A program made the translations under genes and the position numbers. This document shows positions 4,986-21,831 of a stretch of 25,933 nt of DNA, in pieces. The notes beneath the pieces are model-generated. The model was not told the origin of the DNA, ran no database searches, and saw nothing but the letters and a program-made list of their open reading frames with translations. Source of the DNA: an uncultured bacterium (GTDB taxonomy: Bacteria; Lernaellota; Lernaellaia; Lernaellales; Lernaellaceae); NCBI GenBank assembly GCA_964534375.1, contig CAZHPN010000073.1, forward strand, positions 1 to 25,933, in the 5' to 3' direction. Positions within the stretch are counted from its first letter, which is position 1, and each line of letters starts with the position of its first letter.

Positions 4986-5330
4986 ATGGACGAACTGGAA
5001 AAGAAGGAAAACACGATATGGAAGAAAATCAACGCAGTTAGCAACGGGACCGGCGGATTTGCCCGGGCTAATAGCGTTGACGAGACACAAAGTTGGCTCG
5101 GTCGGATCAAGAATAGGTTGCTCCGCTTCATCGCGGCGCGCTGGCGCGGTCTTGTCTGCGGCGGTATCGCCTTTGTGGCGATGATCCTGATTTTCGGGCC
5201 CGCCGGTTTTGCATTCGGTGGAACCGCGTATCACGTTGGCTGGTTGCTGTACGGTTTCGTTAGCATGTTGATTGGCGATTGGGTCGGACTCAGATGGCCC
5301 TCTGAATTAGCGCCGGCCTCAGCAGCATAG
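4986..5330 (+). CDS. Small hypothetical membrane protein (114 aa, 2 C-terminal TM helices)
   Basis: RBS AAGGAG upstream of the ATG, charged N-terminus, two hydrophobic segments, followed by a clear terminator. Confidence 0.7.
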   Translation: MDELEKKENTIWKKINAVSNGTGGFARANSVDETQSWLGRIKNRLLRFIAARWRGLVCGGIAFVAMILIFGPAGFAFGGTAYHVGWLLYGFVSMLIGDWVGLRWPSELAPASAA

Positions 5331-5348
5331 TACCCGTAAGATGAGATG

Positions 5349-5383
5349 AGCCCCGCCGCCGACCGTGGCGGGGCTTTTTTTTT
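5349..5383 (+). terminator. Rho-independent terminator
   Basis: AGCCCCGCC...GGCGGGGCT stem followed by a T run, 18 nt after the 4986-5330 stop. Confidence 0.85.
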
Positions 5384-5587: not shown

Positions 5588-6292
5588 CTACTCACCGTGT
5601 TCGCCGCCTTGCCCCTCGTCCGCCGCTTCTTGATCGGTTGGCGATGGCGGGCCAGGGAGGCGAAGAGGTATCTGACCAGATTGTGGAACTTCTGCCAGCT
5701 TTCCGGCATCATCACGCCCAGGCGCTTGTCCGCTTCCTCCGGTTTCTTCATTTTCAGACGGCTCCGGTTGCTCGTCCCGATTCTTGAGATCCAATTCGCC
5801 CTGTTGTGCTGCCGGTTTGGCTATAATCAGTCCGTTCACCTTGGTGTCGCCCGATTTCTTCAACATATGGTCATTGTCAAACGTATGCAATTTGCTCACG
5901 CCAAGATGGATCGCCGTTGCGATATGGATTGCGTCTGGCGTTGGTAATCCAGGATCATAGTTTTTCTGTTTCCTTTTCCCCTTCTTTGGATAAGCAATGC
6001 GAAGATCGTGGGCGCGACGACAAATTCGGCTATCCGGGGCGACGACGGCAATCTTTCCATTTAACAGAAATTTGTTAAATAAGGCTTTGTTGGCGTCCGA
6101 CAAATCTGTGTCGAACACCTCGACCCTTGTTATCGTCGAGGTGACGATGTTGGACTCATCGGCCATAAATTCGCCGACCGCTTTCTGCAAGCCCCAGTTT
6201 TCTGTTGGATCGGCCCTCTGTTCGCCCGTCAACCAAGCAATGAATACATTGGAATCCCAATAGTATACGGGCCTGGGTTTATTCCCACTCAT
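5588..6292 (-). CDS. PIN-domain ribonuclease (VapC-like toxin), 234 aa with low-complexity C-terminal tail
   Basis: All four PIN acidic motifs: YYWDSNVFIAW, STITRVEV, TPDAIHIATA, LHTFDND. Start MSGNKP overlaps the upstream gene by 14 nt. Confidence 0.88.
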   Translation of the reverse strand: MSGNKPRPVYYWDSNVFIAWLTGEQRADPTENWGLQKAVGEFMADESNIVTSTITRVEVFDTDLSDANKALFNKFLLNGKIAVVAPDSRICRRAHDLRIAYPKKGKRKQKNYDPGLPTPDAIHIATAIHLGVSKLHTFDNDHMLKKSGDTKVNGLIIAKPAAQQGELDLKNRDEQPEPSENEETGGSGQAPGRDDAGKLAEVPQSGQIPLRLPGPPSPTDQEAADEGQGGEHGE

Positions 6293-7103
6293 CGCGCAAT
6301 CTCCGAACCGCCTTTTCTGCCTCGACGCCCTTCGTTGCATTAGGCGCTATGGCGTGTAAATCGGCCAAAGACGGAAGTTCGTCGTCCGTCGGATGAACTT
6401 CAATGTCGTCAAGGTCTACCAGATGAGGGTATGGATCGCCAGCTTTATAGTGAAGCGTCCCGAAGACAGTAACATAGCGGTCGAGCCCCGTTCGCACCTT
6501 GGAACGCATTTCATCCTTGAAGACGCACGTGACACGCCGCGGCCCAGCTATCGGGGAAAGCCAAATCTGCCTCGTTTCATCGTGAAAATTTGCCTTATCC
6601 ATCTTCCCAGATATGGAACCAATCTCCACTTCCTCTTTCGGCGCTATTTCTGCGGTCGGTTGAACGGTTTTGTCAACAATTACCTGGTTATCGTCAGCGC
6701 AAAACTCAAGCCGGCGAATCTTGTCGTGGTCAACCGGCCGTACAATATCTTCGTAAAGTTTTCGTCGCTTGCCCAGTCCTTCGAGGTTCGTTCCGGTTCT
6801 GAAGTGACGAATTCCCTCACAGACGCGCTGGTAAATCTTCGCTTCGATCACTGGGTCTTGGGACGCGGCGTTGCGCCTAACGCTAACGGTATACGGGCTG
6901 TCGTGCGTAATATCTACGATTTCGTAATCGCCGAGCGCCTGCCCTTCGGCGCTTACTTCCTTGTCTTCCGCAACCAGAGCGGCCTTAATGGCGGTCAGTT
7001 CCGCCGCAAAAACAGTTATAGAAACGCGCCGACAATCGTCATGTTGGCCGGCGAGAGATATCTTGAGCGTCGGATTTTTCCGTTCTTCAGTCTGGTTTGG
7101 CAT
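6279..7103 (-). CDS. Uncharacterised 274-aa protein, putative large antitoxin (OB-fold-like region plus VapB-like C-terminal tail)
   Basis: RBS AGAAAGGG before MPNQTEE. Beta-rich segment GSISGKM...VTCVF...YVTVFGTLHY and tail LPSLADL...AEKAVRRLRDEWE. Overlaps the PIN gene. Function is inferred. Confidence 0.7.
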   Translation of the reverse strand: MPNQTEERKNPTLKISLAGQHDDCRRVSITVFAAELTAIKAALVAEDKEVSAEGQALGDYEIVDITHDSPYTVSVRRNAASQDPVIEAKIYQRVCEGIRHFRTGTNLEGLGKRRKLYEDIVRPVDHDKIRRLEFCADDNQVIVDKTVQPTAEIAPKEEVEIGSISGKMDKANFHDETRQIWLSPIAGPRRVTCVFKDEMRSKVRTGLDRYVTVFGTLHYKAGDPYPHLVDLDDIEVHPTDDELPSLADLHAIAPNATKGVEAEKAVRRLRDEWE

Positions 7104-7528
7104 AACCAGACCCTTTCTCTTGGCTACGCCACGTGCATGAGTGTCGGCAAAGCAACCGCTTCCCCTCGATCTTTTGGATTCCTTCAGCGCTCCGTGCGCC
7201 ATCGCTAACACTCTGAGTATTATACTTGTGATGGAAATTCGCAAGGTGCAGGGAAACGTGCTTACCGGACAGATGCTGGTGGGTGCCGCCGAGCCTCCGC
7301 TTCCTGTTGCGGAAGGCGTCGTCAACGGTGTTTGTCCTCGCCAAGCGGACCGTTTCTTCGTCGGTTCGCGCATGTTCTTCTTGTGATTGGTTTTCGGCGC
7401 CGTGAGATGCGACGTCCCGACCGAACTTGTTGTTGAGTTTCGATTCGTCGGTGTCGGGGTGCGCGCCGGGCACGACGTGCGACCTGATGCCGCCGCAGGC
7501 GGCGGTGCGAAGTCGCTCGTGCAACCCG

Positions 7529-7626: not shown

Positions 7627-9816
7627 TTACCGACTTGGTTTCAGTTCCAAACCGAGCCGAACAACCCCTGTATTTTTGCGCTCTTTGCGGAATCCGCGCT
7701 CTTCGAGACAACGGCCAAAAGCCGTTTCGGTCATGGGGTGTCGGACGCCGGTTTTTTGGGCATGTACAGTGTAGGCTTCGAACAAGGATCTGGCCGGCGC
7801 CCGGCAATCGGGGCCGCGGTCGCAGCATTCGTTGAGGAATTCCGCCAGCCGATCGGACTCTTCGCGAAACTCGCCGGTCGCCGAATTCACGGTCGCCGTC
7901 GCGGGCAAGCCGTCATGCTGCCAGAGCAGGCAGCCTTCGAGCAGCCAGTTCAGGATGCCCGGCCGTTCGGCGTGCAGCTTTTCGATCAGCCGCTTGTCGC
8001 GCTCGGCTTCGGGAATGGTGACGTTGAACGGCACCAGGCGCAGCCGCCGCCAGAGGCCGTTATCCTGGCCGGAGACCAGCGGCTTGTGATTCGTCGCCAT
8101 GACGATCTTGTGCGTCGGCATGAAGGTCCAGAAGTTTTCGTGCATGCGCCGCGCGCTGATCTCGTCGCCGCCGGTCAACTGCTTGACCAGCGATTCGGAA
8201 AGGCGGTCGCCGCGTTCGATTTCCGTCGCGACGGCGAGCCGCCGGCGGTACAGGTCGGCCGTCGCGGTCGGGTGCGCGTCGTTGTGCCGGTCCAGCAGCA
8301 TCCCGGGCGCCGTTTGCAGGCCGTAGCCGCCGAGCACGCCCTTGACCGTTTCGAGCAGCACCGTTTTGCCGTTCGCGCCCGTGCCGTAAAAGATCGTCAA
8401 CACGTGCTCGCGAACATCGCCGGTCAGGCAATAGCCGAAAAAGCGCTGCACATAGTCGATCAACGCCGCGTCGCCCGCGAAGATGCGCTCCAGAAACGTT
8501 CGCCAGAGGTCGCAACGCGCGGCCGGGTCGTAGGCGACGCCGGCGAGCTGCGTCAGCCGCCGGGCCGGATCGTGCGGCGACAATTCGCCGGTGCGCAGAT
8601 CCAAAATGCCGTTCTGCAGGTTCAGCAGCATCGGCTCCGGTTCGAGGTCCGCCGGGCTGAATTGCATGTCTTTTTCGGCTTCCGCGGCCCGCACCATGGC
8701 GTCGATGCGGTGCACGTTCTCCGAGCGTGTGGCGTGCTTCCGCAGGGCGGCCCGCTGCTCCTCCGTCGCGGCGTCCTGGGTCTCGGCGTCGATCCGGCGC
8801 GTCGTCTGCTTCGCCATCGCGCGCACGCGGATCGCTTGCTCGTCGCGCGCCCAGCGCCGCCCGTCCCACGCATACCAGGTGCGCCAAACCGGAATGCAGC
8901 GGGCTTCGTGCCGATGCTGATTGGCGAACCGTTCGCCGTTGCCGATGTCGGTCAGCGGCGACGTGACCGGCGCCGGCGCCGGCGCGGCCAGCGGCGTCGC
9001 CGCGTCGAGCGCGGCCTGCCACGCGGCGGCGAAACCCGCGGGGCCGGTTTTCTTCAGCAGATCGTTCGGGTCTTTGACGCCGTCGAGCTGCACGAGCCGC
9101 GCCTCGCCCGTCCAGCGGCCGGAGTGAATGACCCGCGCGGCGTCCTCCGCAAATTGCGCGCCGGCGGCGTCGGGCTCCTGCACGACGTAAACGCGGGCGA
9201 TGCCGCGCAGCAGTTCCGGCGAGAGCTTTTTCGCCATCGTCGCGCCGGGGAAGCCGAGCGCCGGGCAGCCGACATGCCAGAGCGTCCAGCAATCGCTCTC
9301 GCCCTCGACCAGGACGAGCGAGCCGGCCGCGCGGGCGGCGTCGAGCCGGTCGAGGCCGTACGGAATCAGCCCCTTGCCGGGGCCCCACGAACTGCCGTCG
9401 CCCGCCTTGAGCGCGCGGCGGCGCCGCTCGCGGAAGGTTTTGCCGCTTTCGTCGCGATACGGAATGATGACGCCGTGGTGCGCGTCGTCCCACAGCCCCA
9501 GCGAGCGCAGAAAATCCGCCGGCAGGCATTTGTCCTGCGCGAGCGCGGCGACGGTCAGCGGCGGGCCGGCCGGCGTTCTGCGCCGCCACTTCTCGCGCGC
9601 CGGCGCCGGAAACAGATCCTTCATCGACAGGCTCAGCGCCGCGACGATGTCCGGCGCCGCGCACCCGGCGAAACATTTCAACAGAATGCGGCCGTCGCCG
9701 CCCTCGCACACCGACAGCGACGCTTGCCGATCGTCGTGCGCGGGGCAACGGGCGTGCCACCCGTGGCTGTTTTTTCGCGGCGAATCCAAACGGGTCAGGA
9801 ATTCGGAGACGTGCAT
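7627..9816 (-). CDS. Phage/plasmid P4-family primase-helicase (Zn finger + TOPRIM + D5_N + SF3 helicase), 729 aa
   Basis: CPAHDD...CFAGC zinc finger; LVEGESD and EPD TOPRIM; TDIGNGERF and WYAWDGRRW D5_N; Walker A GTGANGKT; KQLTGGD.I.AR, TNHKP and WRRL. RBS AAAAGGAG. Confidence 0.93.
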   Translation of the reverse strand: MHVSEFLTRLDSPRKNSHGWHARCPAHDDRQASLSVCEGGDGRILLKCFAGCAAPDIVAALSLSMKDLFPAPAREKWRRRTPAGPPLTVAALAQDKCLPADFLRSLGLWDDAHHGVIIPYRDESGKTFRERRRRALKAGDGSSWGPGKGLIPYGLDRLDAARAAGSLVLVEGESDCWTLWHVGCPALGFPGATMAKKLSPELLRGIARVYVVQEPDAAGAQFAEDAARVIHSGRWTGEARLVQLDGVKDPNDLLKKTGPAGFAAAWQAALDAATPLAAPAPAPVTSPLTDIGNGERFANQHRHEARCIPVWRTWYAWDGRRWARDEQAIRVRAMAKQTTRRIDAETQDAATEEQRAALRKHATRSENVHRIDAMVRAAEAEKDMQFSPADLEPEPMLLNLQNGILDLRTGELSPHDPARRLTQLAGVAYDPAARCDLWRTFLERIFAGDAALIDYVQRFFGYCLTGDVREHVLTIFYGTGANGKTVLLETVKGVLGGYGLQTAPGMLLDRHNDAHPTATADLYRRRLAVATEIERGDRLSESLVKQLTGGDEISARRMHENFWTFMPTHKIVMATNHKPLVSGQDNGLWRRLRLVPFNVTIPEAERDKRLIEKLHAERPGILNWLLEGCLLWQHDGLPATATVNSATGEFREESDRLAEFLNECCDRGPDCRAPARSLFEAYTVHAQKTGVRHPMTETAFGRCLEERGFRKERKNTGVVRLGLELKPSR

Positions 9817-10224: not shown

Positions 10225-12414
10225 ATGAAAAGGCGGCTCGGCGATCGCTTGCGCATCGGCGCGTTGGTTTCCATTTGCGCCCTGCTTCTGACCGCCGCGT
10301 GCGGCGCCGGCAAATCCACCGGCGCGTCGACGCCGGTTGGGCCGGGCGACGACGACGGCAGCCCGTCCGTGGACATTGACGCCGTGGCATTGGTTTTGCC
10401 GGCCGGCGTCGCGCCGGCCGTGCGCCTCGCCGCGGAGGACGCGGCGGCGTTGCTGGGCCAGATCGACGGCCTGACCGCCGGCCTGGTCGAGAAAATCGCG
10501 ACCGACGGCCGGACGTTCAACATCGCCGTGGTCGGCCCGGGCGTCGCCGCAGCGGTCTTCTCCGCCGCCGAACTGGCCGAGATGCCGGCGGAGTCGTTCC
10601 GCTTGCGGGCGGCCGGCGCGACGACGCTCGCCGTCGCCGGGGCCGACGCGCGCGGCCAGCAGTACGGCCTGTACGACGCGCTCGAGCGCCTGGGTTTCCG
10701 CTTTTTCCATCCGGAGCAGACGTACACGCCGCCGGCCTTCGACGCGAGCGGGCTGGCGAACCTCGATGTCTACGAAAAGCCGGATTGGGGCCGCCGCGGC
10801 TTCCACGTGCACACGATGCACCCGATCGAGGCGTCGGAATTCGTGCTCGTTCCCTCGCCGCAGCACCAGGTCTGGGCGCAGCATTTGATCGACTGGCTGG
10901 CGCGCAACAAGCAAAACTATTGGCAATTCGAGCTGCTGCGGACGGTCGATTACCAAAAGACCGCGCCCTATTTCACCACGCTCGTGAATTACGCGCATTC
11001 GCGGGGGGTCGACGCCGGCGTCGTCGTCACCTGGGTTTTCCAGCAGCAAAAGGCCTGGAAACTCATGCCCGCGACCGACGCCGAAAACAAGCCGGCGTTG
11101 GAAAAGAGCCTGGCCCAGATCATGCAGGTGGCGTGGGACCACATCAATCTGGAAATGGGCACGACGGAATTCACCTCGGTCAACGACAAGCTGCAAGTGG
11201 CGTGGATGAACGACACGGTCGCCTATCTCGCCGCGAATTATCCGAACACGACCGCGTCGGTGAAGGTCCATTGCTCGACGGGCCAGACCGCGCCGGACTA
11301 CGGCAACATCAATTTCAATTACCTGGCGCAGTTCGCGGATAAGCGCATGGGCATTTACCCGCACTCGGTGATGTACTACGGGCTGCAAGGCCCGGCGCCG
11401 GTCTACGGCAACCAGAACCTCGACGGGCTGTATCGCTGGACGCTGTCGATGATCGACGGCGTGCGGAAGGTTTACTACTACCCGGAGACGGCGTATTGGG
11501 TCACCTTCGACATCGACGTGCCGCTGTTTCTGCCGCTCTACATCTACAGTCGCGCCGCCGACATCGCGCTGCTGCGCGACAAGGGCCTCGACGGCCAGGT
11601 CGATTTCACCTCGGGCCACGAGTGGGGTTATTGGCTGTCGGATTGGGCCGTCGCGCGGCTCGTGTGGAATTCGGAGCAGCAATGGACCGACGTCCTCGAT
11701 TCGTTCGCCGCGATTTTCGGCGACCAGGGGCCGACGCTGTCGGCGATCGTGCGCGACCTGGCGCTGACCGAACAGAAATGGCTCATCAACGAGCAACTCG
11801 CGAGCTACCTGGCGGGCGAAGACACGTGGGACGAGCTGGGTTGGTGGCTCGGCGAAGCCACGTACCCGAAACCGGTGTTCTTCGCCGAACTGTACGGCTG
11901 GAACGAAGCGCAGGTCCAGGCCTTCCAGAACAGCGTCATCGCCAATCTCGACGGCCTGGAGGCGGATTTCGCGTCGCTGCTGACGCGCATCCAGAACGCG
12001 GGCGCCGGCATCCCGGCCGCCGCGCAACCCTGGTATCAGGAACTCGTCGATAGCTTCCACGTCAACCAACTGCGCGCCGCCCATCTCCATGCCCTCTGGG
12101 CCGGCGCCGCCGTCCGCCGCCTGAACGAACTCGGGGTCGCGCCCGACGGCGAGGCCGAGGCGCAGGAATGGTTCGCGCAGGCGAAAGCGCTCACCACGCA
12201 ATATCAGGCGACCGTCCAAGCGCGCGAGGCGCACTACCGCTATCCGTTGTTCTACTCGACCGGCTGGCAGCGCAGCGTGACCGCCTACGACTACCGTTAT
12301 CTCTATCAGGTCTCGAACGCGTACTGGTTCAAACGCGCCGAAGCGCAGGCGATCGACAAAAATTTCAATCCGTTTCTGATGAACCTCCTCGACCCGATTT
12401 GGTTTTTCTTCTAG
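10225..12414 (+). CDS. Predicted lipoprotein, glycoside-hydrolase-like (GH20/GH67-type N-terminal domain plus putative TIM barrel), paralog 1
   Basis: Lipobox-like LLTAAC; ESFRL...VAGADARG..YG.YD.LERLGFRFFHP; RRGFHVHTMHPIE; strong GC3 codon bias. Confidence 0.75.
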   Translation: MKRRLGDRLRIGALVSICALLLTAACGAGKSTGASTPVGPGDDDGSPSVDIDAVALVLPAGVAPAVRLAAEDAAALLGQIDGLTAGLVEKIATDGRTFNIAVVGPGVAAAVFSAAELAEMPAESFRLRAAGATTLAVAGADARGQQYGLYDALERLGFRFFHPEQTYTPPAFDASGLANLDVYEKPDWGRRGFHVHTMHPIEASEFVLVPSPQHQVWAQHLIDWLARNKQNYWQFELLRTVDYQKTAPYFTTLVNYAHSRGVDAGVVVTWVFQQQKAWKLMPATDAENKPALEKSLAQIMQVAWDHINLEMGTTEFTSVNDKLQVAWMNDTVAYLAANYPNTTASVKVHCSTGQTAPDYGNINFNYLAQFADKRMGIYPHSVMYYGLQGPAPVYGNQNLDGLYRWTLSMIDGVRKVYYYPETAYWVTFDIDVPLFLPLYIYSRAADIALLRDKGLDGQVDFTSGHEWGYWLSDWAVARLVWNSEQQWTDVLDSFAAIFGDQGPTLSAIVRDLALTEQKWLINEQLASYLAGEDTWDELGWWLGEATYPKPVFFAELYGWNEAQVQAFQNSVIANLDGLEADFASLLTRIQNAGAGIPAAAQPWYQELVDSFHVNQLRAAHLHALWAGAAVRRLNELGVAPDGEAEAQEWFAQAKALTTQYQATVQAREAHYRYPLFYSTGWQRSVTAYDYRYLYQVSNAYWFKRAEAQAIDKNFNPFLMNLLDPIWFFF

Positions 12415-12420
12415 GGACGT

Positions 12421-12616
12421 GAGCCTCTTGCAACAATACAGGTGCAAAAAGCGGCGTCACGCGCGGACCTCTCCCCGGAAATTTCGGTTCCCGAAATTTC
12501 CCGCCCCTCCCCGACGCAGGGAGGGGCCTGCCGGGCGCCGCATTGACACGCGGACCAGCGTTGAAGAAAAGATGCCTCGTCCGCAATTATCGAGCTGCCA
12601 TTTTTGCAAGAGGCTC
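12421..12616 (+). mobile_element. MITE-like element, complete copy 3 (196 bp, 17-bp TIR)
   Basis: GAGCCTCTTGCAACAAT (12421-12437) versus ATTTTTGCAAGAGGCTC (12600-12616), 16/17 complementary. Two internal hairpins at 12477-12501 and 12503-12527. No clean target duplication. Confidence 0.75.
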
Positions 12617-12623
12617 TCGTGAC

Positions 12624-14780
12624 ATGAAAAAACGACTCGGCGATCGCCCGCGGTCCGCGGCGCTGGTTTTGTTTCTGGCGCTCCTGGCGGCCTTCATCCG
12701 CGGGGGCGCGAACGACGCGCGCGGCGCGACGGGGGCGGCGTTGATGAAAGCGTTGATCGTGCTGCCCGGCGATGCGGAACCGTCGGTGCGGCTGGCCGCC
12801 GCAGACGCCGTGGCTCTGTTGAAACAGATCCCGGGCTTCGAGGCGGCCGTCGGCGCCGCGATCGTCGACGACGGCGCAACCTTCAACATTGCGCTCGCCG
12901 GCCCCGGCGTCGCGGCCGGCGCCTTCACCGCTCAGGAAACGGCGAACCTGCCGCCGGAGTCGTTCCGTTTGCGCCAAATGAGCGACCGCGTCGTCGCGAT
13001 CGCCGGCGCCGACGCGCGCGGCCGGCAATACGCGATCTATGACATTCTCGAACGCCTCGGCTTCCGTTTTTTCCACCCCGAGCAAAGCTATGTTCCGCCG
13101 GCGGACAGCATCGCGTGGCCGAAAGGGCTCGACGTTTTTGAGAAGCCGGACTGGGGCCGCCGCGGCTTTCATTTCCACACCATGCACCCGATCGAAGCGT
13201 CCGAGTTTCTGCTCGTGCCGTCCGCGCAGCACAAAATCTGGGCCAAGCATTTGATCGACTGGCTGGCGCGCAACAAGCAAAATTATTGGCAATTCGAGTT
13301 GCTGCGCACCGTGGATTACGAAAAGGCCGCGCCGTATTTCACGGAATTGGTCGAATATTCGCACGCGCGCCAGGTCGACGCCGGCGTCGTCGTGACCTGG
13401 GTTTTCCAGCAACAAAAGGCCTGGAAACTTTTGCCGAACGCGCTGGCCGACCACAAAGACGCGCTGCACGCGGCCCTCGCGCGAATCATGCGCGTGCCGT
13501 GGGACCACCTCAATCTGGAAATGGGCGGCACCGAATTTACGTCGGTCAGCGACAAGCGGCAGGTCGCGTGGATGAACGAGACCGTCGCCTGGCTGGCCGC
13601 GAATCACCCGCTGACCACGGCGTCGGTCAAGGTGCATTGCTCGACCGGCCAGGCCGCGCGGCACTACGGCGGCATCAACTTCAACTACCTCGCGCAGTTC
13701 GCCGACAAACGCATGGGCATCTATCCGCACACGGTCATGTACTACGCGCTCGACGGTCCGGCGCCGGTCTACGACAATAAGGATTTCGCGGCGCTCTACC
13801 GCTGGACGCTGTCGATGATCGACGGCGAACGCAAGGTCTATTACTATCCCGAAACCGCCTATTGGTGCTCGTTCGATATCGTCGTGCCGCTGTTCCTGCC
13901 GCTGTACATCCGCAACCGCGGGAGCGACATCGCGCTGCTCGCCGACAAAAAGCTCGACGGCCACGTCACGTTCACCTCGGGCCACGAGTGGGCGTATTGG
14001 CTTTCCGATTGGACGGTCGCGCGCCTGACCTGGAACTCGCGCCGCTCGTGGACCGACGCGCTCGACGATTTCGCAAAAATTTTCGGCGCCGCCGGCCCGG
14101 GAATGTCCGCGGCGGTGCGCGATCTGGCGCAGTCGCAGCAGCACTGGCTGATCGACCGCAATCTCGCCACATATTTGGCCGGCGAGGACACCTGGAACGA
14201 AATCGGCTACTTCTTCGGCAAGACGACACAGCAGCGGCCGGTCATGTTCTCCGAGCTCTACCGCATGAACGCGGGCCAGGTGCGGGCGCTGCAAAGCGGG
14301 GTGATCGCCGACTTGGCCGCCGCCGCCGCGGAATTCGCGGCGCTGCGCCGCCGGGTCGAGGCGCTGGCTTCGCGCGCGCCCGCCGCTGCGGCCGCTTGGC
14401 TGGCCGAATTGAGCGACTGTTTTCGCATCGACGAACTCAACGCGACGCACGCGCACTTGTTGTGGGCCGGCGCGGCGGCGCGGCGTTTGCACGAACTGGG
14501 CGAGAACCCCGACGGCGAGACGACGGCCCAGGCGTATTTTGCGCAGGCGCAGGAAATCACGCGGCAGTTCGTGGCGACCGTGCACGCCCGCGAAACGCAT
14601 TATCGCTACCCGCTGTTCTACTCGACCGGCCGGAACCGGAGCGTCACGTCGTACAAATTTCGTTACCTGTATCAGGCCTCGACGGGGTACTGGCTGCGGC
14701 GCTACGAGAAGCAGGCGATCGACAAAAACTTCCATCCGTTCCTGATGAATCTGATTGATCCGATCTGGTTTTTCTTCTAA
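12624..14780 (+). CDS. Exported glycoside-hydrolase-like protein, paralog 2 (718 aa)
   Basis: Collinear with 10225-12414 over its full length (shared HLIDWLARNKQNYWQFELLRTVDY, FTSGHEW, DPIWFFF). Starts MKKRLGDR; signal peptide has no lipobox Cys. Confidence 0.78.
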   Translation: MKKRLGDRPRSAALVLFLALLAAFIRGGANDARGATGAALMKALIVLPGDAEPSVRLAAADAVALLKQIPGFEAAVGAAIVDDGATFNIALAGPGVAAGAFTAQETANLPPESFRLRQMSDRVVAIAGADARGRQYAIYDILERLGFRFFHPEQSYVPPADSIAWPKGLDVFEKPDWGRRGFHFHTMHPIEASEFLLVPSAQHKIWAKHLIDWLARNKQNYWQFELLRTVDYEKAAPYFTELVEYSHARQVDAGVVVTWVFQQQKAWKLLPNALADHKDALHAALARIMRVPWDHLNLEMGGTEFTSVSDKRQVAWMNETVAWLAANHPLTTASVKVHCSTGQAARHYGGINFNYLAQFADKRMGIYPHTVMYYALDGPAPVYDNKDFAALYRWTLSMIDGERKVYYYPETAYWCSFDIVVPLFLPLYIRNRGSDIALLADKKLDGHVTFTSGHEWAYWLSDWTVARLTWNSRRSWTDALDDFAKIFGAAGPGMSAAVRDLAQSQQHWLIDRNLATYLAGEDTWNEIGYFFGKTTQQRPVMFSELYRMNAGQVRALQSGVIADLAAAAAEFAALRRRVEALASRAPAAAAAWLAELSDCFRIDELNATHAHLLWAGAAARRLHELGENPDGETTAQAYFAQAQEITRQFVATVHARETHYRYPLFYSTGRNRSVTSYKFRYLYQASTGYWLRRYEKQAIDKNFHPFLMNLIDPIWFFF

Positions 14781-18080: not shown

Positions 18081-18304
18081 ACCTCGGCCGGCGCGAGGAG
18101 GCGCTGGCGGTAGTGCGCGAGGCCGTGGAGTCATTGAGCCCGTATTTCCCCCAGATTCCGCAGGCGTTCGGGCTCTGGATGACGGCGATGGTTTTGAAAT
18201 ATCTGCAATGCTGCCAAGCGTGCTCGGTTGCGCCGGACGGCGAATCGCTCGGGCCGGTTGCGGCGAAATTGGAGGAATTGGAGCGGGAACGCAGTGAACA
18301 GTGA
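18081..18304 (+). pseudogene. Orphan 3' fragment (last half-TPR plus C-terminal cap) of a paralog of the downstream ATPase-TPR gene
   Basis: LGRREEALAVVREAVESLSPYFPQIPQAFGLWM...PDGESLGPVAAKL...SEQ* aligns codon-for-codon with 21616-21831. No start codon or RBS of its own. Confidence 0.88.
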
Positions 18305-18552: not shown

Positions 18553-21500
18553 ATGGTCGAGCCAGTCACCGCCGTCACCACCGCAACTGCTTTCTTTGCC
18601 AAATTGCTTCCGGGCGCCGTGGTGCGCATCGCCGGCGACGCAATCGGGAAGGCGCTCGATAAGAGCAAGCTGGAACGAGCGGGGAAAGACGCGCGAGACT
18701 GGCTGGAACGCCAAGGCGAGGCGAAGAAATATTGGGCGGTTCTCGAAGGGCTGAAGCCGGAGGCCTGGGAATCGTTCCGGCAGGCCGTCGATCATTTCGC
18801 CGAGGACTTGCGCGGCCATTATTTGCAAAATGAAATACGGACGATTTTTTCGCACCTTTCCCTTTATTCTCAGACTCCCGTCGACGACGAGACAGCGGCC
18901 CGGCTCGCGGACCTTTTTTACGAAGCGATCTTGCGGGCGTTTCTGGCTTCGGGCGTCAACCGCGTCGCATTCCTGGCGGAGCGATTGTTGGCCGACCTCG
19001 ACGTATCGCGGCTACAAGCGGCGATAAAAGAAAGTTCCAGACCGCTCGATTACCTTGTCGATTACACGATTCTGTTGCGGCGTCCGTATTGGCCGTTGCC
19101 GTTCGGCCGGCGAGGGGTCGCGGAGTTATTGATTGCCAATTACGGCATCGCGCCGTTTTGGGGCCGGCGTGCGGAAATCGATGATTTGCTGGCGTGGTGC
19201 AACGGCGGGGACAATCTGCGAATCCGCGTTTACACGGCGCCCGGCGGCGAAGGCAAAACGCGGTTGTTTGCGGAATTGTGTGCGGAAGTCGAAAAGCGCT
19301 CGCCGGAGTGGCTGTGCGGTTTCTTGCGGGTGGGTCAAATGGCAGGCCACGAAGCCGCGCTGGCGAGATTGCTCGACCTCGGCCGGCCGTTGCTGCTCGG
19401 CGTCGATTACGCCGCGGCGAAGACCAAGGAACTGCTGACGCTGGCGCCTTATCTCCAAGCGGCGCGCGGCAAGGTTCGACTCGTTCTTCTGGAGAGGCCC
19501 GGCGGCACATGGTGGGATGATTTGTGCTGCCAGGGCGTCGAAGCGGAAAACTTTTTCAGCAAAGGCGTGCAAAAATCCCTGGAGCCTTTGGGCGCCAACG
19601 AAGGCGAACGGCAGGAAATTTTCAAGAAGGCGCAGGAACAATTTGCTCGGTTCAGTCCCAAGGACGCGAAACCAACCACGCCGCCGGATTTGCGCCACGA
19701 CGATTACAAAAACGTGCTTTTCATTCACGTCGCGGCCCTGCTGTCGGCCCACGGCGACCGGGCCATGAGCGCGGACGACTCGTTGAAAAGGTTGCTCAAA
19801 CACGAAGAAGCCTGGTGGCTGAACAACGCACGGCAATTCTCCCTGCCCGAAAAGGCGCCGACGCTGCGCAAAGCGGCGGCGCTGGGCACATTGGTTGGCG
19901 GGGTCAAAAAGAAATCCGAAGCCCTGCCGCTCTTGAAAAAAATCGAGGCGCTGGCGCATCGGAACGTCGAAGACTTATCGAACTTGTGCCGCGCACTCGG
20001 CGGTTCGCCGGATGGCGATCGAGAATTTTTGCCCGCCTTGCGCCCCGACCGGCTGGGCGAAGCGTTGGTCGAGAAAGTGTTTGCCGAGGGCCAAACGGTT
20101 CGGGATGAGTTGATAAACGCTGCATTTGACGAGGAAAAGCTTGCGGGCGCGGCGAACGCGTTGGTGGTTTTGAGCCGAATTGCCGGGCGAAAAGCCGATT
20201 GCGGAACCTGGATTGATCGGGCCGTGGAACTGCTACCAAAGGCGACCGGTGTTGCGGTTCTGGCAATACACACGGCGGTTGAATTTGACGTGGCCGACCG
20301 CGTTGCGGCTGCGTTCGAAGAGACAAAACCAATGGCAGCGGCCAGGATGATTCACGATCTGTTGCCGGTGGAAAGCGTCAATCTGCGCCATTTTTCAGCG
20401 GTTATTACGGAATTAGCTTTGGAACTTGCGCGCCGAAAATCCCCACGCGATGAGGAATGCCTGACAGAGATCGCAGGTTTTGCCAACAACCTGAGCAATA
20501 GGTATTCCAACCTCGGCCGGCGCGACGAGGCGCTGGCGGCGGCGCGCGAGGCGGTCGACGTCTATAGGGATCTCGCGGCAAGAAACCGCGACGTCTTTTG
20601 CCCCGATCTCGCCATGTCGCTAAACAACTTGGGCACGACCTATGCCTATCTCGGCTGGCGCGAGGAGGCGCTGGCGGCGGCGCGCGAGGCGGCAGACTTT
20701 TATCGGGAACTCGCGGCAAAAAACCCCGACTCCTTCCGCCCTTATCTCGGCGCTTCGCTCAGCAACCTCGGTTCGATTTATTCCGGCGTCGGCCGGTACG
20801 ACGAGGCACTGGCGGCAGCCCGGGAGGGGGTGGAGATTCGGCGAGAACTCGCGGCGGAAAAGCCAGACGCCTTCCGCCCCGCTCTCGCGATGTCGCTCAA
20901 CAACCTGGGCCGTAGGTATTCCGAACTCGGCCGGCGCCAGGAAGCGCTGGCGGCGGCGCGCGAGGCGGTGAAGGTTTGGCGGGAACTCGCGGTGAAAAAC
21001 CCCGACGCTTTTCGCCCTTATCTAGGTGGTTCGCTCAACAATCTGGGCACGATGTATTCCGAACTCGGCCATCGCGGGGAGGCGCTGGCGGCGGCACGCG
21101 AGGCGGCCGACGTTTATCGGGAACTCGCGGGGAAAAACCCCGACGCCTTTCGCCCTGATCTGGCTGGTTCGCTCAACAACCTCGGCGTGATGTATTCCAA
21201 CCTCGGCCGGCGCGAGGAGGCGCTGGCGGCGGTGCGCGAGGCGGTGGATATTCAGCGGGAACTCGCGGCAAAAAAACCCGAGGCCTTTCGCCCCGCTCTC
21301 GCGGAGTCGCTCAACAACCTGGGCAGTATTTGTTCCGACCTCGGCCGTCGCGAGGAGGCGCTGGCGGCGGCGCGCGAGGCGGTGAAGATTCGACGGGAAC
21401 TCGCGGCGCAAAACCCCGAGGCCTTTCGCCCCGCTCTCGCGGAGTCGCTCAACAACCTGGGCAGTATTTGTTCCGGCCTCGGGCGGCGCGAGGAGGCGCT

Positions 21501-21831
21501 GGCGGCAGCGCACGAGGCGGTCGACGTTTATCGGGAACTCGCGGGGAAAAACCCCGACGCCTTTCGCCCTGATCTCGCTGCTTCACTCAACAACCTGGGC
21601 AACAGCTATTCCGCCCTCGGCCGGCGGGAAGAGGCGCTGGCGGCAGTGCGCGAGGCTGTGGAATCGTTAAGACCGCATTTTTTGCAGATTCCCCGGGCGT
21701 TTGGGCAATGGATGACGTCGATAATTCAGAATTATCTGCAATACTGCGAAACATGCGGGGTTGAGCCGGACGGCGAGTTGCTCGGACCGATTGTGGCGAA
21801 ATTGGCCGAAACAGTGAACAGTGAACAGTGA
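18553..21831 (+). CDS. STAND/NLR-like P-loop ATPase with C-terminal TPR array (1092 aa)
   Basis: FWGRRAEIDDL..W, Walker A APGGEGKT, Walker B LLLGVDYA, VRLVLLER, LRPDRLGE; 8 full and 1 partial 46-aa TPR units. Confidence 0.88.
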   Translation: MVEPVTAVTTATAFFAKLLPGAVVRIAGDAIGKALDKSKLERAGKDARDWLERQGEAKKYWAVLEGLKPEAWESFRQAVDHFAEDLRGHYLQNEIRTIFSHLSLYSQTPVDDETAARLADLFYEAILRAFLASGVNRVAFLAERLLADLDVSRLQAAIKESSRPLDYLVDYTILLRRPYWPLPFGRRGVAELLIANYGIAPFWGRRAEIDDLLAWCNGGDNLRIRVYTAPGGEGKTRLFAELCAEVEKRSPEWLCGFLRVGQMAGHEAALARLLDLGRPLLLGVDYAAAKTKELLTLAPYLQAARGKVRLVLLERPGGTWWDDLCCQGVEAENFFSKGVQKSLEPLGANEGERQEIFKKAQEQFARFSPKDAKPTTPPDLRHDDYKNVLFIHVAALLSAHGDRAMSADDSLKRLLKHEEAWWLNNARQFSLPEKAPTLRKAAALGTLVGGVKKKSEALPLLKKIEALAHRNVEDLSNLCRALGGSPDGDREFLPALRPDRLGEALVEKVFAEGQTVRDELINAAFDEEKLAGAANALVVLSRIAGRKADCGTWIDRAVELLPKATGVAVLAIHTAVEFDVADRVAAAFEETKPMAAARMIHDLLPVESVNLRHFSAVITELALELARRKSPRDEECLTEIAGFANNLSNRYSNLGRRDEALAAAREAVDVYRDLAARNRDVFCPDLAMSLNNLGTTYAYLGWREEALAAAREAADFYRELAAKNPDSFRPYLGASLSNLGSIYSGVGRYDEALAAAREGVEIRRELAAEKPDAFRPALAMSLNNLGRRYSELGRRQEALAAAREAVKVWRELAVKNPDAFRPYLGGSLNNLGTMYSELGHRGEALAAAREAADVYRELAGKNPDAFRPDLAGSLNNLGVMYSNLGRREEALAAVREAVDIQRELAAKKPEAFRPALAESLNNLGSICSDLGRREEALAAAREAVKIRRELAAQNPEAFRPALAESLNNLGSICSGLGRREEALAAAHEAVDVYRELAGKNPDAFRPDLAASLNNLGNSYSALGRREEALAAVREAVESLRPHFLQIPRAFGQWMTSIIQNYLQYCETCGVEPDGELLGPIVAKLAETVNSEQ
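20485..21660 (+). repeat. 138-bp intragenic tandem repeats encoding 46-aa TPR units
   Basis: NNL/SNL codons recur exactly every 138 bp from 20485 to 21589. Confidence 0.92.

Follow-up and report, generated by a model that had tools for sequence, protein, structure and literature searches.

A conserved gene pair of a predicted large antitoxin and a PIN nuclease, with the antitoxin tail recurring alone in phage genes

We analysed a window of 25,933 nucleotides, positions 1 to 25,933 of contig CAZHPN010000073.1, in the assembly of an uncultured Lernaellaceae bacterium (GCA_964534375.1). Within it lies a cassette of two minus-strand genes, here gene A and gene B, whose open reading frames and overlap, as given in a preliminary description of the DNA, were confirmed, the overlap measuring 14 nt (Table 1). 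The same overlap is the commonest in homologous complete pairs (26 of 46), with 11 nt in 11 of 46. The drop in base composition relative to the surroundings also held, with a cassette GC of 0.525 against a genome mean of 0.642 and equally low values in 0.5% of 3961 genome windows of the same length. Gene A and the PIN type of gene B are each present in a single copy in this genome. RNA contigs of three metatranscriptome studies span both genes and two bridge their junction; as these are assembled contigs, strand, level and a single transcript cannot be read from them. Missing RNA cover over the neighbouring primase and the flanks was not used for ranking genes, because those runs were found with the cassette. 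Neither a sigma-70 promoter nor a tRNA was found in the DNA under study.

Table 1 Features of the cassette and its immediate neighbours, in positions of the window.
Feature	Positions	Strand	Basis or remark
Gene A, predicted large antitoxin, 274 aa (N-domain, OB fold and conserved tail)	6279..7103	-	ORF, family search, alignment, AF2 model
A residues 13-144, N-terminal alpha/beta domain	6672..7067	-	AF2 secondary structure; remote link via homologues to N-part of PDC-M32A
A residues 156-240, OB fold	6384..6638	-	Near-invariant G162, G166, N172, H174, P184, C193, F195, G215; fold search
A residues 243-274, conserved tail, predicted cover of PIN active site	6282..6377	-	Alignment, co-fold; segment occurring alone in phage genes
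Gene B, PIN/VapC-like predicted RNase, 234 aa	5588..6292	-	PF01850 E 7e-13; D13, E58, D120, D139; start overlaps gene A end by 14 nt
Basic insertion of gene B, residues 102-110	5963..5989	-	Not conserved in family
Low-complexity C-terminal extension of gene B	5591..5797	-	Not conserved
P4-family primase-helicase neighbour (context only)	7627..9816	-	TIGR01613, D5_N
Degenerate C-terminal third of IS1595 transposase	7138..7488	-	PF12762 E 2e-5; local profile positions 209-319, E 1e-17

Several plus-strand features accompany the cassette in the window. Converging on it is a 114-aa ORF (4986-5330) with a hydrophobic C-terminal half and no Pfam match, which is followed by a strong hairpin (5348-5376) and lies under RNA contigs in three runs. 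Further along are a tandem paralogous pair of ~730-745 aa each (10225-12414 and 12543-14780) and a STAND-type NTPase of 1092 aa that is rich in TPR repeats (18553-21831; its nSTAND_NTPase5 match is weak), just upstream of which a fragment (~18150-18304) is similar to the C-terminus of the NTPase.

Gene A had no family match in Pfam, NCBIfam, PADLOC or PHROGs and no match in a PDB sequence search; the C-terminal end of its protein reads AEKAVRRLRDEWE. A full HMMER search gathered 916 cluster representatives (50% identity) at E ≤ 0.001, and most of the matches listed (150 of 916) are ~270 aa long and 25-35% identical to gene A. Conservation across 135 aligned members is concentrated in an S-P motif of the N-domain, the OB residues listed in Table 1 and the tail, in which G251, P254 and R270 are conserved at 90% or more. 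The model of gene A was confident (pLDDT 91, pTM 0.65), and fold searches bore out the OB-like domain that the preliminary description had proposed, with Z up to 9.1 against MCM, SSB and RPA over ~75-85 aligned residues (rmsd 2.7-4.3) and a further resemblance to lysyl-tRNA synthetase (E 7e-4). The likeness is one of shared fold and does not imply function; OB folds serve roles other than sensing too. Lists from the whole-model searches were filled by the OB domain and gave no fold assignment for the N-domain, for which a single-sequence model was poor (pLDDT 42). Whole-length structural matches to gene A were found among phage proteins in BFVD, one of them labelled DUF6575 (E 2e-10). The name DUF6575 appears in the description of a validated E. 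coli system, according to the available part of the source (PMC9519451); the term was not found in those of its supplements that were searched, and none of 301 genomes and none of 14 controls matched the family.

The intact four-acid site described earlier for gene B proved to be a property of its family, as all four acids, together with S52 and H123, are invariant in 47 aligned PINs. The nearest solved PIN is 7by2 (E 6e-4), and gene B belongs to a distinct subfamily with the start motif YWD..F.AW. A basic insertion and a low-complexity tail, to which the preliminary description had also drawn attention, are present in gene B, but neither extends to its relatives: the basic loop counts 15 residues, 6 of them K/R, whereas the family medians are 7.5 residues and 2 K/R, and family PINs are 156-306 aa long, with a median of 173, against 234 aa here. 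Both were rejected as functional family features, being specific to this copy.

Coupling of the two genes, previously asserted for this locus, is general in the family. Among 94 non-redundant loci for which 200 bp or more of downstream DNA was available, 91 have a PIN gene after A (65 of 65 tail-selected loci, 17 of 20 profile-selected loci and 9 of 9 further viral or phage records), where some of the PINs counted are frameshifted or cut. Tail-pattern loci were drawn from genome, metagenome and viral collections, and whole-profile loci from genome samples with no selection on the tail (2 of 17, 8 of 401 and 15 of 401 genomes, the last tally including one unpublished genome); the 24 profile-selected loci were reduced to 20 by dropping two duplicates and two not matched by a tail-less profile. 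The three loci without a PIN call comprise one with a VapC-like ORF (L109), one with an out-of-frame PIN-like start (L094) and the sole locus with a different partner, a DUF6932 gene upstream (L096). There, a distant tail-less A homologue comes after the DUF6932/PDC-M63A gene and not before a PIN (L096:608-1998). With a PIN-start pattern in viral contigs, A was upstream of all 5 whole PINs (5/5). Where distant A homologues have other tails, their partners are PINs of the classical VapC type.

Of 24 long loci, 6 had an RM or defence-type gene no farther than ~3.3 kb away, a raw count with no baseline. Neighbours of homologous cassettes include a Schlafen/AlbA_2 gene (L058:7352-8599), a type III RM system (L025:6315-10768), a GmrSD-like gene (L061:3758-5554) and a SoFic gene (L044:694-1896). 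Directly after the PIN, three loci carry ORFs of 50-60 aa (L012:7275-7451, L041:5746-5910, L088:612-773), which we take to resemble the kind known from IS1595 right ends.

Binding of the A tail in the groove of the PIN domain, envisaged in the preliminary description, was assessed by co-folding PIN residues 1-165 with A residues 230-274 in three runs using our own alignments. The ipSAE was 0.77 (0.75-0.79), compared to 0.00 for the best control. In a benchmark, 116 of 157 solved pairs reached the score mark, as did 2 of 215 mismatched pairs, figures that apply only roughly here because our own alignments were used. Runs shared at least 97% of contacts, with partner pLDDT of at least 73, and placed tail residues 243-274 against PIN residues 13-24, 58, 117-120 and 137-142, which correspond to the active site, including all four catalytic acids, and the conserved F.AW helix. 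By this prediction, the final 30 residues of A block the PIN active site like a plug. Resemblance to solved VapBC complexes may have shaped the co-fold, but the conserved tail had no sequence match in the PDB.

The pair shares with VapBC the order of antitoxin then PIN with an overlap and a PIN domain with four conserved catalytic acids; a C-terminal peptide lying on the active site, as in VapBC, is predicted by the co-fold. It differs in the partner. VapB antitoxins are small, with RHH, AbrB, Phd or HTH DNA-binding heads, whereas the partner here is ~270 aa and has, in place of such a head, an N-domain and an OB fold; no Pfam match to an RHH, AbrB, Phd or HTH-type head was found in the 135 family members, and neither a helix-turn-helix nor a ribbon-helix-helix head was seen in the gene A model. 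Novelty, which had been left as a question, was assessed against catalogued systems and the literature: no PADLOC-DB 2.0 (2023) system has profiles matching both gene A and gene B, and no description of the A-PIN pair or of grafted antitoxin tails was found in the open-access texts searched. The A-PIN pair is real and widespread, and is probably a variant, apparently undescribed, of PIN toxin-antitoxin modules.

PDC-M32, a PADLOC defence candidate from the PDC set (10.1101/2024.01.29.577857), resembles the cassette in having a small overlapping downstream partner. Over its first ~255 residues, PDC-M32A bears a remote similarity to the N-domain and OB fold of the gene A family: PDC-M32A is matched by 6 of 135 members (best E 4e-6), and the distant homologue L108 matches its positions 4-254 (E 1.5e-6). 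Gene A itself (P0001) had no PDC-M32A match, and direct profile comparison was weak (probability 5%). PDC-M32A differs in ending in a different domain of ~110 aa, and PDC-M32B in having no Pfam match, PIN included; its profile was matched by 0 of 47 PINs at E 0.01. That C-terminal domain of PDC-M32A also occurs by itself as the middle gene of three-gene sets (L156:1109-2499, L157:1067-2571, L158:452-2293, L160:554-1860), which we take to resemble chaperone-antitoxin-ADP-ribosyltransferase (CmdTAC-like) layouts. Such a layout would place the N-domain and OB scaffold in the sensor position; PADLOC gave no CmdTAC match for these sets.

DS-3 and DS-5 (DefensePredictor) and HEC-03 are validated PIN defence systems that share a PIN RNase effector with the A-B pair, and DS-5 and HEC-03 likewise have two genes. 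As far as the available parts of the sources go (PMC13092281, PMC10440598, PMC12429752), DS-3 differs as a single split PIN, HEC-03 in having an ABC ATPase as partner, and DS-5, which is set apart by description, in a partner made of DUF5830 and an AcrIF4-like domain (PMC13092281). No match to DUF5830 was found in the 135 gene A family members. The available part of the same source describes DS-5 as a PIN and partner that defend without being a toxin-antitoxin pair (PMC13092281). Two further sources, jointly and in the parts available (PMC11825919, PMC11618068), present CmdTAC as a toxin-antitoxin system triggered by phage through an added sensor, and DarTG1/AdfN as a case in which an orphan phage antitoxin acts as counter-defence. 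The A-B pair differs from CmdTAC in its PIN toxin and in a putative sensor fused to the antitoxin, and from AdfN, which is a whole enzyme, in that the putative antidote is a 30-residue peptide grafted on unrelated proteins.

The preliminary description had drawn on the nearby P4-type primase as an argument for defence, which was not supported in that form. Gene A is separated from the primase by an IS1595 transposase remnant, overlooked there, and the window has no recognised integrase ORF. The argument is weak because cassette homologues often travel as IS1595 cargo and in prophages. With the remnant intervening and no integrase recognised, P4-satellite membership was rejected as the main explanation. 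Stretches ~80% identical to the primase occur on three other contigs (C181, C224, C371), and the cassette was absent from both of the two inspected.

Of 70 loci with 500 bp of room, 23 had an IS1595 transposase immediately upstream, with Pfam confirmation for two. Among 15 loci examined for terminal inverted repeats, five had transposase, A and PIN enclosed by them (L005, L026, L028, L033, L061). These five relatives share the layout of IS1595 transporter elements, a transposase and then passenger genes inside terminal inverted repeats; in this window, by contrast, only a decayed third of the transposase remains, and no terminal inverted repeat pair was found around it. The remnant is likely the vehicle that brought the cassette into this genome, and the best reading of the cassette is former IS1595 cargo that came to lie beside the primase by chance. 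In two loci (L076:295-1077, L130:1089-2075), an in-frame fusion joins the N-part of an IS1595 transposase to the C-part of A and is followed by the PIN gene or its start. The whole cassette was also found on nine IMG/VR viral contigs and in Pseudomonas phage vB_PaeS_AV001, right after the repressor, while plasmids gave no family match and only two chance-level rows at E 6-9.

The tail of A also occurs alone. It was found with no intact PIN in the available DNA in nine phage or phage-like loci (L020, L021, L022, L085, L086, L089, L120, L138, L166), of which L120 is a weak match (E ~0.01); L090 was left out of this count because of a contig edge, and chance pattern matches (13 of 20, 2 of 5, 4 of 10 and 4 of 6) were set aside. 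In 8 of the 9, the tail and another gene form an in-frame fusion. In L021, the tail makes up the end of a GH25 endolysin whose gene is flanked by terminase and portal genes, and the tail's GC is 0.35 compared to flanks near 0.6; in L022, it forms a 41-codon ORF among phage tail genes. Small ORFs on viral contigs carry it in L020, L120, L138 and L166, and in L085, L086 and L089 it is inside ORFs near RusA, replication-initiator and Cro-like genes. Both L020 and L022 keep the first PIN codons in the overlapping frame, and their DNA was therefore captured from the cassette junction. L085 and L086 share a graft of 37 codons, 12 identical, 18 with synonymous and 7 with non-synonymous changes. The segment grafted in phages coincides with the predicted PIN-binding segment.

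Searching proteins of 16-154 aa with a tail profile gave 52 matches among 501 candidates, of which 25 are fragments of A and 27 carry the tail only, at the C-terminus in 22 of the 27. No two of these 27 carriers align at E 0.001, and 5 match PHROG families; endolysin, HNH-type and other phage-family proteins are among the carriers of the tail. Genomic context is visible for three of the 27 (L020, L166 and L090, the last at a contig edge). As a control, we used OB-domain patterns, which reach 70 of 135 family members compared to 63 of 135 for the first three tail patterns. OB patterns returned 4 true viral contigs, all with whole cassettes, and tail patterns returned 10, of which 6 were tail-only (Fisher p 0.07, not significant). 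The tail-only excess over this control, which covers the viral contigs alone, is suggestive.

Grafting of the tail onto unrelated phage genes indirectly suggests an anti-phage toxin-antitoxin system with a stolen phage antidote. The reading we favour, with reasonable rather than high confidence, is that the cassette is a conserved, mobile two-gene module that works as a type II toxin-antitoxin-style anti-phage system, from which phages escape with a captured tail. Within it, neutralisation of B by A is highly probable, and an anti-phage role of the pair is likely. In the uninfected cell, A would be made together with B and would neutralise it. Upon infection, the N-domain and OB fold may bind a phage cue, either single-stranded nucleic acid or a phage protein, or may lose stability, such that the tail would come off the PIN. 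The freed PIN would then abort the infection by cutting RNA, which by analogy with VapC would be tRNA or rRNA, and some phages could escape by expressing their captured copy of the tail as an antidote.

The frequent upstream transposases, the five cassettes enclosed by inverted repeats and the modest number of defence neighbours would also fit an ordinary addiction or stabilising module on IS1595 elements and prophages, in which the N-domain and OB fold autoregulate or stabilise the antitoxin, phage is not sensed, and the grafts either shield temperate phages against competing selfish elements or amount to neutral debris. We consider this rather unlikely, given that nearly all grafts are in frame, synonymous changes dominate between L085 and L086, the gene A model has no HTH or RHH head, and the family was found on no plasmid record. 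That the tail-only proteins are miniature antitoxins of PIN genes of their own, or products of a DNA-capture hot spot with no bearing on defence, would be compatible with a visible context for no more than three of the 27 small proteins and with the control comparison; it is nonetheless improbable, since no intact PIN comes after the tail in the nine loci with downstream DNA available and the carriers include endolysin, HNH-type and other phage-family proteins.

A further alternative is that the PIN does no harm by itself and needs A as its activator or essential cofactor, with the tail only docking the two proteins. DS-5, as described in the available part of its source, offers a precedent (PMC13092281), and pairing with PINs persists in distant homologues whose tails differ. 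However, the predicted contact covers all four catalytic acids, as an inhibitor's would, and gene order and overlap are those of type II toxin-antitoxin operons, and we regard this alternative as very unlikely. A more tentative extension of the anti-phage reading, plausible but held with some doubt, is that the N-domain and OB fold form a so far unrecognised, reusable scaffold that senses phage and takes interchangeable neutralising tails to control different toxins (this PIN subfamily, classical VapC and PDC-M32B), and that the tail, repeatedly captured by phages and present even on an endolysin, represents a widespread new class of minimal anti-defence peptides. If this were true, screening phage genes for orphan antitoxin tails would offer a general route to finding defence systems.

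The A-PIN cassette defines an unannotated putative PIN toxin-antitoxin family that is widespread across many phyla, and the copy in a sequenced temperate Pseudomonas phage makes it directly testable. Repeated in-frame grafting of the 30 residues predicted to be inhibitory would be the trace left by an arms race; it would yield a minimal antidote peptide, would show counter-defence genes arising by capture from the host system, and would offer a "guilt-by-theft" screen for defence systems.
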